Source: Dehalococcoidia bacterium (GTDB lineage: Bacteria > Chloroflexota > Dehalococcoidia > GIF9 > AB-539-J10). From it: a DNA stretch of 64,000 nt. The translations under genes were made by a program, and so were the position numbers. Under the pieces are notes generated by a model. That model made no database searches. It was not told the origin of the DNA and was given only the letters and a program-made list of their open reading frames with translations. Within the stretch, counting starts at the first letter, position 1. Every line of letters begins with the position of its first letter. The stretch covers positions 3,394 through 67,393 of the forward strand of contig JAGGVQ010000010.1 of assembly GCA_021157895.1 (NCBI GenBank), read 5' to 3'. Shown here in pieces: positions 40,243-42,889 of the stretch.

Positions 40243-41373
40243 TCAGCTATATTTCCTCAGAATAGCCTTGCAGGAATCTAGAACAGAAGTTAATTGTTGC
40301 CTGTCCGCCGCAAAGGTAGAGACCTTAAACGCCTTAGTCAACCCTGGTTGTGGCCCCCAGATACCCCTGTTTTTTAACTCCTTATAGAAGAAATATCCTC
40401 TCTCACGAACATGTTGGGAAATCTCATAAAGTTGTAGTGTTTCAAAATAAAGCAAATCATGGAGGTGTGGCTTCTCTCCCAACTGCTTAAATCCCAGCTT
40501 CTCCATCTCGGCTGAAAACCACTGCGCCTTGGCCACCTGCTCACCCCAGTGACAAACCCTCTCTATAACATCAGGGAAGGAAGCCATTAAAGTGGCCAGT
40601 GGAACCCCTCTTACTGTACATCCAAGAAGCTCAATCTCCTTATTTTTGTACGACTTAGATGTCCTCAATACTCTTTCTTCCCACTTCTTCTTCATCCCCA
40701 ACACCCCACAGGGTCCCGCAGAAGCCATGCTTTTATGTCCACTGCCTACAATAAAATCAGCCCCAATTTCATCCATCTTAACTGGCATTCTTCCCACCGC
40801 ATACGCTCCATTGAGTATATACGGCACACCATGAGCCTGCGCTATTTCACCTGTTCTCTGCGCATCAGGAAGATTTCCATAACTACCATCAGGATATGTC
40901 AAAAGAAGTAGCCTGGGATCATATTGCTGTATTAGATCCTCATATCTATCAACATCAACCTTGAACTCGGGATAGCCAGAATGAGGCACCTCCACGATAT
41001 TGAGGCCCACCCTCTCAGCAGCAACAACAGTGGTATAGTGTCTGTTGCTGTCAACGACGATAGTATCACCGGGTTGAGCCAGAGAATGAATCACCGTGAA
41101 TATCGCCTCTCGGGCCCCATGTACTACTGTAGCAACATCACTTCCAAGGAACTGAGGCAACAAATCATGTACAAACTCCTTAGCAGGAGGCTTCGCAATG
41201 TCAGATAAACGACCCAGGCAAAAATCACACACCGAATACCCATCTCCAAACTCGATCAGAGCTTCCTTTGCAGCTTCAGTAAGAAGGCCCCCCGTTTGTA
41301 ACGGCATGATATTAATAAGGCCCTTGTGTTCCCGATGCAGATGTGTAAGCCTCTGTAGTGCTTTATCTTTCAC
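40243..41373 (-). CDS. pscS: O-phospho-L-seryl-tRNA(Cys):Cys-tRNA synthase (SepCysS)
   Basis: [37 protein letters not shown] and the PLP-lysine block [16 protein letters not shown] match the conserved SepCysS signatures I recall from archaeal enzymes. Length is 376 aa. It overlaps the SepRS stop by 11 nt. Confidence 0.8.
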   Translation of the reverse strand: [376 protein letters not shown]

Positions 41374-42889
41374 TTGTTGGAGCTGCCCCCCTCAATGACT
41401 GAGATTTAATGGTTACAAATACCGCGCCTCGAATGTCTATCTCCTTATGCTGACCCTCAATATATTCCAGGATAGACTTGGGTATTTGCAAATTGAGATC
41501 GGAAAGATGCTTGACTTCTTTCGTTTGATATATCACATCAGGGTCATTTTCTATTGAAGCTGCGGCTCCCATTGCCAGAGCACGCATATAACTTATGCCG
41601 GTATAAACTCCAGAAGGAACCACATCGCTGTAAATTCCGCCATCAGTCACACAAATTTCATTAAACCCGGCAGGCCCAACCAGCCTTTTCCCTTTCTCTT
41701 TCTCCATAATAACCACCTGGATAGCCCCATCATCCCAGGCGACAAACTCACAGGGTGCAATCTCGTTCTTATGCTTCCGTGCGGCACTCTCAATAGCCCT
41801 GGCTATCTTCCTCCCCCGCGCAGTTCCAGGACTATTTATGTAACTAAAGGACTGAGCTATATCTTCATCGGAGAACTCCGCTATAGAAAACTGGGGAAAG
41901 GCAAAAGTCCTCACATCATCAATGTGGTGCAATACCATTGCCATCCGCTCAATTCCAAACCCCACATTAAATACGGGATACTTTATGTCAAAATTCGCCA
42001 GAGCCACTGGTGAATACATGCCTATATCTGCAACCTCAAGCCACTCATCCCCATGCTTAACGAAAACCTCCTGTTCCAACCCTGGAGCATAATACTTGGA
42101 TGTCGCTGGATTGGTCTTGAACTCAAATTCTGAAAAGCCATACTGCCGTAAGATATCCTGGGCTATTTCCCTGCCTGCCTCCAGTGACATCTCAGGGTGC
42201 ATTATTACAACTGAGGCAGAATTGTGAACTCGTAAGTGGTGCGCATCTTCCCTCTGCTCGTTACGGTACCTTGGGCCAACAGAAAAGAGAGCAAGCGGAA
42301 AATGAGATGTGTCCTGCATGGCTTGCAGGGTATGAAACCAGGTAGCTGTCATATGACTTCTTAAAGTCTTATTGGTAGGCACTGGGTGCAATGTCTTTAC
42401 CTCAGGGAACACCCTGTCCAAAAGCTCAATAGCCTGGTAATCCGTTATATCTAAGCCAAGAACAAGCTCCTCTACCAGATCATCAGCTTCAATATCACCC
42501 TTCTTATATCTTCGAAAAATAGACTGCAGTTTCTCAACTTGAAGTTTCTCTACAATCCCTTCCGCCTCAGCTATCCTTTTTCTCTTCAATCCTATTTCAG
42601 GCCGAGGCAAAGCAGCCAGGTAAAAAACTCTGTCAAGAATAACCCTGGCTTCAGGGCCATACTGCCGGGAGACATCATGGTCAGGCAAAATGGTCAGGTT
42701 CTCAATCTCATCGAAACCCAGCCCCAGCAGGATTTCTCGCGATCTCTGGACCATATCACGCAACGGGTGCGACTTACCTTTCCCCTCTAACTTAACAACC
42801 GTGCCTCTGGGGATTAAATCTGCTGTGGCCACCCAGGCCTCTACGAAATTTTTCCCGCCCTGTTCCTTGATCCGTTCTACATCAAACAT
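41363..42889 (-). CDS. sepS: O-phosphoseryl-tRNA ligase (SepRS)
   Basis: Contains HPLRDMVQRSREILLGLGFDE, LDRVFYLAALPRPEIGL, FRRYKKGDIEADDL, LRSHMTATWF and SVGPRYRNEQ. These blocks are collinear with archaeal SepRS (PheRS-alpha-like class II). Length is 508 aa. Confidence 0.85.
   Translation of the reverse strand: MFDVERIKEQGGKNFVEAWVATADLIPRGTVVKLEGKGKSHPLRDMVQRSREILLGLGFDEIENLTILPDHDVSRQYGPEARVILDRVFYLAALPRPEIGLKRKRIAEAEGIVEKLQVEKLQSIFRRYKKGDIEADDLVEELVLGLDITDYQAIELLDRVFPEVKTLHPVPTNKTLRSHMTATWFHTLQAMQDTSHFPLALFSVGPRYRNEQREDAHHLRVHNSASVVIMHPEMSLEAGREIAQDILRQYGFSEFEFKTNPATSKYYAPGLEQEVFVKHGDEWLEVADIGMYSPVALANFDIKYPVFNVGFGIERMAMVLHHIDDVRTFAFPQFSIAEFSDEDIAQSFSYINSPGTARGRKIARAIESAARKHKNEIAPCEFVAWDDGAIQVVIMEKEKGKRLVGPAGFNEICVTDGGIYSDVVPSGVYTGISYMRALAMGAAASIENDPDVIYQTKEVKHLSDLNLQIPKSILEYIEGQHKEIDIRGAVFVTIKSQSLRGAAPTSER

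Follow-up and report, generated by a model that had tools for sequence, protein, structure and literature searches.

What does a gene pair typical of archaeal cysteine synthesis do in a bacterial chromosome, and how long has it been there? The question is raised by a 64,000-nt stretch of a Dehalococcoidia bacterium genome (contig JAGGVQ010000010.1 of assembly GCA_021157895.1; the whole stretch is called the window below). Two adjacent minus-strand genes in this window encode SepRS, an O-phosphoseryl-tRNA synthetase, and SepCysS, a Sep-tRNA:Cys-tRNA synthase that depends on pyridoxal phosphate (PLP). According to the list of open reading frames (ORFs), sepS occupies 41363..42889 (508 amino acids [aa], ATG start) and sepCysS, also called pscS, occupies 40243..41373 (376 aa, GTG start). 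The reading that best accounts for the data, to which we assign a probability of about 0.9, is that the pair is a bicistronic, translationally coupled sepS-sepCysS operon of a Dehalococcoidia bacterium, that it belongs to the bacterial SepRS-SepCysS operon lineage, and that it uses ordinary tRNA-Cys without an adaptor.

Identity of the two proteins and their bacterial lineage

The product of sepS matches the NCBIfam equivalog model TIGR00470 at 446 bits (curated cutoff, 380.65 bits) over profile positions 5 to 530 of 533, and the models of the sister families PheS (PheRS-alpha) and PylS (PylRS) give 92 and 39.5 bits, respectively. Its top solved structure is the SepRS of Archaeoglobus fulgidus (2du3; E value, 6e-112), which aligns end to end with window residues 2 to 497. 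Class II motifs 2 and 3 are both kept, as GPRYRNEQ and GFGIERMAM, respectively. In a multiple alignment, H179, T181, S224, S226, and N308 correspond to A. fulgidus H186, T188, S231, S233, and N325, and these positions are invariant in eight Dehalococcoidia homologues. The anticodon-binding domain at the C terminus is complete, with the 2du3 alignment reaching residue 532, so that the protein is not a SepRS-deltaC. For the product of sepCysS, the equivalog model TIGR02539 gives 516 bits (curated cutoff, 365.25 bits), and the cysteine desulfurase models SufS and CsdA give 43 and 36 bits. The top solved structure is A. fulgidus SepCysS1 (2e7i; E value, 8e-135; 56% identity). The PLP lysine, K214 within GSGHKSMA, is the counterpart of A. 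fulgidus K209, and three conserved cysteines, C49, C52, and C252, correspond to A. fulgidus C39, C42, and C247. The three would act in a persulfide/Fe-S sulfur relay, the role described for these SepCysS cysteines by Mukai 2017 (PMC5424206).

The sequence-only reading had named both enzymes from short peptide blocks, and all of these are present: LDRVFYLAALPRPEIGL at residue 85, FRRYKKGDIEADDL at residue 125, and LRSHMTATWF at residue 176 of SepRS, and PLQTGG...CDFC at residue 24 and GSGHKSMA at residue 210 of SepCysS. Both names hold in the profile searches (TIGR00470 versus PheS, TIGR02539 versus SufS), and motifs 2 and 3 and the PLP lysine are kept.

A bacterial form of this pair has been described. 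Mukai et al. 2017 (mBio, PMC5424206), whose survey took in every public genome and metagenome, found both enzymes in Chloroflexi (Dehalococcoidia) and "Ca. Parcubacteria," arranged as a SepRS-SepCysS operon; they also proposed separate origins for SepRS and SepCysS. In vitro, a recombinant Chloroflexi SepRS placed phosphoserine on A37 and G37 tRNA-Cys alike, and the paired SepCysS turned the Sep-tRNA into Cys-tRNA; the bacterial pair accepted the bacterial-type A37 tRNA-Cys and required no SepCysE. The same study gives sequence markers of the bacterial enzymes. The bacterial SepRS has a hydrophilic residue, mostly Asp, in place of A. fulgidus Ile444 and is without the helix that comes next; the bacterial SepCysS lacks the loop at A. 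fulgidus positions 144 to 147 and has no insertion of 8 aa at 234/235 (clade I-like). The three conserved cysteines are kept in Chloroflexi SepCysS (PMC5424206).

All four sequence markers are present in the window pair and shared by its Dehalococcoidia homologues. The segment with the SepRS marker is GGIY-SD-VVPSG in the window, which is shorter by 8 residues than the A. fulgidus segment YGIPKTKKWRSFFEEG (a deletion of I444 to R451). The SD pattern recurs in seven of eight aligned Dehalococcoidia homologues, the eighth (L052) having SA, and archaeal loci show a deletion of only 4 residues, with part of the segment kept. In SepCysS, the 144-147 loop is a 4-residue gap in the window and in 10 of 10 aligned Dehalococcoidia homologues, and the alignment at A. 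fulgidus 234/235 is ungapped, the 8-aa insertion being absent. The helix lost from SepRS reads m1G37 of archaeal tRNA-Cys, and bacteria are without Trm5 (PMC5424206); a SepRS without this helix thus fits the bacterial A37 tRNA-Cys.

The Chloroflexi SepRS assayed in that work, "Hot_spring_Yb1" (IMG JGI24721J44947_1000093732/33; sequence taken from the supplementary alignment of PMC5424206), is 68% identical and 83% similar to the window SepRS over 494 residues. The two share the gene order, SepRS and then SepCysS, and the SepRS deletion with Ser-Asp replacing the Ile444 helix. "Hot_spring_Yb1" is another species from a hot-spring habitat, and its comparison with the window rests on SepRS. Since charging was demonstrated for this orthologue, the 508-aa window protein is expected to charge tRNA-Cys with O-phosphoserine. 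Among the operons listed in PMC5424206 are those of Chloroflexi bacterium RBG_13_51_36 and Dehalococcoidia bacterium CG2_30_46_9 and CG2_30_46_19. RBG_13_51_36, which is one of the related loci recovered here (L036), has a SepRS 67% and a SepCysS 73% identical to those of the window and a convergent rimI downstream, as in the window; its sepS and sepCysS are separated by a spacer of about 34 nt, in contrast to the overlap of 11 nt in the window. The A. fulgidus enzymes share with the window pair the domain architecture, the class II motifs, the putative Sep-pocket residues, the PLP lysine, and the three cysteines (Cys39/42/247), at identities of 42% (SepRS) and 56% (SepCysS); they differ in that the window SepRS lacks I444 to R451, the m1G37-reading element, and the window SepCysS lacks the 144-147 loop.

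Relatives were collected by a scan over one genome per GTDB species, which gave at least 80 loci; counts below refer to the 80 listed. In total, 68 of these lie in bacterial records, whose titles give Dehalococcoidia, Dehalococcoidales, Chloroflexota, Chloroflexi, or Chloroflexia, and their SepRSs are 60 to 70% identical to that of the window; the other 12 come from archaea (one unclassified archaeon besides members of the Asgard group and Bathyarchaeia), with identities of 39 to 42%. Each of the best 120 clusters in the protein database is at least 65% identical to the window SepRS, the closest match being 99% (an ENA protein) and the next best 74%; many of the 120 already carry the name O-phosphoserine--tRNA ligase or O-phosphoseryl-tRNA synthetase. 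The pair thus belongs to a known, published, biochemically validated, and routinely annotated bacterial operon lineage, and its novelty is low. An initial impression that the pair is only sporadic in bacteria did not survive, since at least 68 Dehalococcoidia/Chloroflexota species representatives carry it and the operon was published in 2017 (PMC5424206). What is known of the operon, including activity, relaxed recognition of tRNA-Cys, and SepCysE independence in vitro, all from that report, is unchanged.

Both proteins belong to larger superfamilies, and Pfam places them only at that level (tRNA-synt_2d for SepRS, SepSecS and Aminotran_5 for SepCysS), as would be seen if they were diverged paralogues, resembling PheRS-alpha and cysteine desulfurase, whose function is not Cys-tRNA synthesis. 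Such an origin is very improbable given the equivalog scores of 446 and 516 bits against 92 for PheS and 43 for SufS, the SepRS-specific C-terminal domain, the SepCysS cysteines, and the canonical activity of the 68%-identical orthologue (PMC5424206).

The gene pair and its upstream spacer

The sepS stop region and the sepCysS GTG start overlap in GTGAAAGATAA (41363..41373, minus strand), 11 nt being common to both ORFs; an overlap of this length between two minus-strand genes had been read from the sequence, and the ORF list gives the same coordinates. This geometry is typical of translational coupling, which is probable here. The GTG at 41373 is the sole start codon that preserves the conserved SepCysS N terminus, in which window residues 13 to 22 align with A. 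fulgidus SepCysS residues 3 to 12. A putative Shine-Dalgarno sequence for sepCysS, the G-rich GAGGGGGG (41386..41393, minus strand), lies within the 3' end of sepS, 12 nt before the GTG; this spacing is rather long, and GAGGGGGG may serve as the ribosome signal.

Close linkage of the two genes is common among relatives. SepCysS follows SepRS on the same strand in all 62 Dehalococcoidia loci with room for it, among the matches listed. When the genes are delimited by a longest-ORF rule, sepS and sepCysS overlap in 29 of the 62 loci, are 0 to 60 nt apart in 17 (overlap or at most 60 nt, 46 of 62), are 61 to 300 nt apart in 10, and have other genes between them in 6.

Upstream of sepS, a divergent intergenic spacer of 138 nt (42890..43027) separates it from an Amidohydro_2 gene and presumably holds the operon promoter. 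A TATACT at 42911-42906 (minus strand) is an unverified candidate element. Neither a SepCysSn gene nor a T-box leader would fit into a spacer of this length, and the ORFs on the operon strand that start within it are only 30 and 27 aa long. At Rfam gathering thresholds, no leader or riboswitch was found near the pair, the matches in the window being one 5S rRNA and two tRNAs elsewhere.

In one Dehalococcoidia subclade, same-strand genes stand between SepRS and SepCysS (L031:11665-16508, CAISEW010000037.1). They encode a CDF cation-efflux protein, a Se/S carrier protein (PF11823), a 110-aa membrane ORF, a YedE-family putative selenium transporter (TIGR04112; 435 bits; cutoff, 200), and an EF2568-type cysteine desulfurase (TIGR01977; 471 bits; cutoff, 377). 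Inserts at L024:11899-13836 and L028:11665-12606 hold the CDF gene only, plus one membrane ORF in L024. The L031 insert may represent a link between a sulfur or selenium donor and SepCysS; the window has no such insert.

Proposed tRNA substrate and reaction route

By homology to the pair tested in vitro, and with the pathway chemistry as summarised by Mukai 2017 (PMC5424206), two chemical steps on tRNA-Cys may be proposed for the window pair. O-Phosphoserine would presumably be supplied by SerA/SerC, encoded outside the window. The class II SepRS would activate free O-phosphoserine with ATP and esterify it onto an ordinary tRNA-Cys (GCA) encoded elsewhere. SepCysS, with PLP on Lys214, would then eliminate phosphate to give dehydroalanyl-tRNA, and a persulfide/Fe-S relay through Cys49, Cys52, and Cys252 would add sulfur to give Cys-tRNA-Cys. 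A HAD protein encoded at 49646-50293 (plus strand) was considered as SerB, which would be relevant to the phosphoserine supply, and was rejected because it is an MtnX-like HAD-IB phosphatase (TIGR01489; 93 bits; cutoff, 81.55) and therefore not an obvious phosphoserine phosphatase that would compete for the SepRS substrate.

No SepCysE or SepCysSn adaptor would be used in this minimal two-enzyme system, unlike in the SepRS-SepCysE-SepCysS complex of methanogens. The Methanocaldococcus jannaschii "transsulfursome" (5x6b/5x6c and 3wkr) matches both window enzymes (E values, 2e-98 and 1.6e-114), but the window locus has neither a SepCysE gene nor a split SepCysSn gene, and no SepCysSN domain is fused to the N terminus. 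SepCysE, SepCysSn, and SepCysSN are confined to certain archaea (PMC5424206). No SepCysE or SepCysSn was found within the window or within 10 kb on either side in the 80 loci, although no search with SepCysE itself as the query was made. A split SepCysSn gene before sepCysS has no room, because sepCysS overlaps sepS, and the SepCysS N terminus is just 10 residues longer than that of the adaptor-free A. fulgidus SepCysS1.

The pair might instead serve a dedicated, non-housekeeping tRNA, such as a second tRNA-Cys isoacceptor or a recoding tRNA, beside a normal CysRS route. Precedent comes from two bacterial cases (Parcubacteria-type) in which SepRS-deltaC or a second SepCysS has a linked tRNA-Cys gene, and from one bin with two tRNA-Cys types (PMC5424206); in addition, the genome beyond the 64-kb window is unseen. 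We nevertheless regard this alternative as unlikely. ARAGORN found no tRNA-Cys, tRNA-Sec, tRNA-Pyl, or unassigned tRNA within 10 kb on either side of the pair in the window and the 80 loci, the Chloroflexi SepRS accepted A37 as well as G37 tRNA-Cys for charging in vitro and therefore has a relaxed specificity (PMC5424206), and the window SepRS has a complete anticodon-binding domain. The lack of a linked tRNA-Cys in the window and the 80 loci argues for an ordinary tRNA-Cys encoded elsewhere over a dedicated linked one.

CysRS was absent from the family scans of the likely window genes, in which the ORFs at 20005..20697, 23633..24091, 46585..47013, and 59323..59886 were not included; each of these four encodes at least 110 aa, lies outside the pair, and is not necessarily an overlap artefact. 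A tblastn search with Escherichia coli CysS gave zero matches in the window (six frames) and in all loci (1.19 Mb), which says little because the loci resample one syntenic region. ARAGORN, ORF inspection, and the CysS search thus agree with the sequence-only reading that no tRNA-Cys, SepCysE-like adaptor, or cysS lies nearby. The literature searched held nothing on CysRS or cysteine synthase in SepRS-bearing Chloroflexi, and a CysE survey paper (PMC13040420) mentions SepRS/SepCysS for archaea only.

Several points weigh against a coupled operon acting on ordinary tRNA-Cys. A promoter and terminator scan of 39900-43300 gave no minus-strand promoter (sigma-70 consensus) upstream of sepS and no terminator, and its predictions were fewer than in shuffled sequence; the operon boundaries therefore follow from gene orientation alone. 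The tRNA-Cys itself is absent from the window, where ARAGORN gives only tRNA-Glu and tRNA-Ser. A. fulgidus H186, T188, S231, S233, and N325, which align with the five invariant SepRS residues, are the putative phosphoserine pocket of 2du3. The activity of this particular pair is argued from homology, as is its sulfur relay.

Chromosomal neighbourhood and descent

The genes downstream of the pair form a conserved syntenic block (33218..40138) that comprises, outward from sepCysS, rimI (plus strand, convergent), pyrD (minus), an SPFH gene (plus), an NfeD-like gene (plus), hisZ (minus), and hisG (minus). In tblastn searches of the 80 loci, these neighbours recur in the same order beside SepCysS (rimI in 52, pyrD in 27, SPFH in 19, NfeD in 17, hisZ in 15, and hisG in 13), the counts being limited mainly by contig ends, and the window genes are 36 to 83% identical to their syntenic counterparts. 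Family matches bear out the view that the neighbours are ordinary bacterial genes, namely rimI (TIGR01575; 113 bits; cutoff, 86.4), pyrD (NF005574; 425 bits; cutoff, 269), and a TRAP transporter (dctP, dctQ-like, and dctM), and this context is conserved. The upstream amidohydrolase and TRAP transporter genes are not conserved in related loci and are specific to the lineage of the window.

The wider window is ordinary bacterial core chromosome. The side downstream of the pair carries PCMT, a Xer-type recombinase, uvrC, a 5S rRNA, archease, RtcB, and a leu/ilv cluster. Also in the window are guaA, purD/B/C, PFK, and hisB/C/D/G/Z, together with the NfeD-like, SPFH, pyrD, and rimI genes, and the other side carries Amidohydro_2, TRAP dctP/Q/M, xth, uvrA, H+-pyrophosphatase, thiD2-thiE, fumarase, malic enzyme, and cmk. 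The G+C content is flat, at 0.41 to 0.48 along the window and 0.45 to 0.46 across the locus, with no step.

Since the pathway is typical of archaea and the nearest solved structures are archaeal, the pair could be suspected to be an archaeal fragment that faulty assembly or binning placed in a bacterial contig, or else a very recent horizontal transfer unintegrated in host physiology. This is highly improbable. Two independent ENA metagenome assemblies encode an identical SepRS protein, with DNA identities to the window of 99.98% over 41358-45848 (L081) and 99.95% over 41119-42920 (L082). The junctions of SepRS with SepCysS and of SepRS with the amidohydrolase-TRAP genes are reproduced in them at 99.9% identity or more and are thus real rather than artefacts of assembly. 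The flat G+C content across the locus likewise speaks against a foreign fragment, and archaeal SepRSs (Asgard, Bathyarchaeia, and A. fulgidus) are just about 39 to 44% identical to that of the window. Moreover, the pair keeps its bacterial neighbours in species with SepRSs that are only 60 to 70% identical, which indicates an old, vertical inheritance. Conserved synteny and the independent assemblies effectively refute mis-assembly and recent transfer; the operon is an old, vertically inherited part of the chromosome of the Dehalococcoidia clade, neither a recent import nor a binning error.

The locus is a further intact, species-level example of an archaeal-type translation and biosynthesis pathway that sits stably within a bacterial core chromosome. 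Its place in a conserved housekeeping neighbourhood (rimI, pyrD, and his genes) across many Dehalococcoidia, an abundant subsurface group, argues for ancient acquisition followed by vertical descent.

It is possible, though rather doubtful, that this Dehalococcoidia lineage lacks CysRS, and maybe CysK/CysM too, so that the operon would be its only source of Cys-tRNA-Cys and cysteine. If so, making cysteine on tRNA would be obligatory for a free-living bacterial clade. More than 60 species have kept the pair intact and tightly coupled while SepRS diverged to 60 to 70% identity, as is expected if the pair is indispensable, and such constancy throughout a deep clade suggests that cysteine synthesis, CysRS, or both of these canonical functions may be missing. 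A co-resident CysRS is compatible with all of the observations, and the 64 kb cannot decide between a sole and a second route.

Several other features of the window were observed. A lone 5S rRNA gene (4867-4983, plus strand), unaccompanied by 16S or 23S rRNA anywhere in the 64 kb, lies directly upstream of the archease-RtcB (RNA ligase) pair (5109-5531 and 5543-7000). A radical SAM protein encoded beside uvrA (50632-51585, minus strand) has prokaryotic viperin as its best NCBIfam match, at 47 bits and far below the cutoff of 180. The hisG ORF (33218-34639, minus strand; 473 aa), which adjoins hisZ, has a HisG domain only at about residues 250 to 470; its N-terminal extension of about 250 aa matches no family, and its length is kept in related Dehalococcoidia loci (tblastn matches span about 1,400 nt). 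The gene for a Xer/phage-integrase-family tyrosine recombinase (1270-2112, minus strand) lies about 900 nt from tRNA-Glu(TTC) (278-352, plus strand). A tRNA-Glu(TTC) is also found upstream of SepRS in nine related loci among the matches listed, which hints that the wider synteny on that side is conserved at a greater distance.

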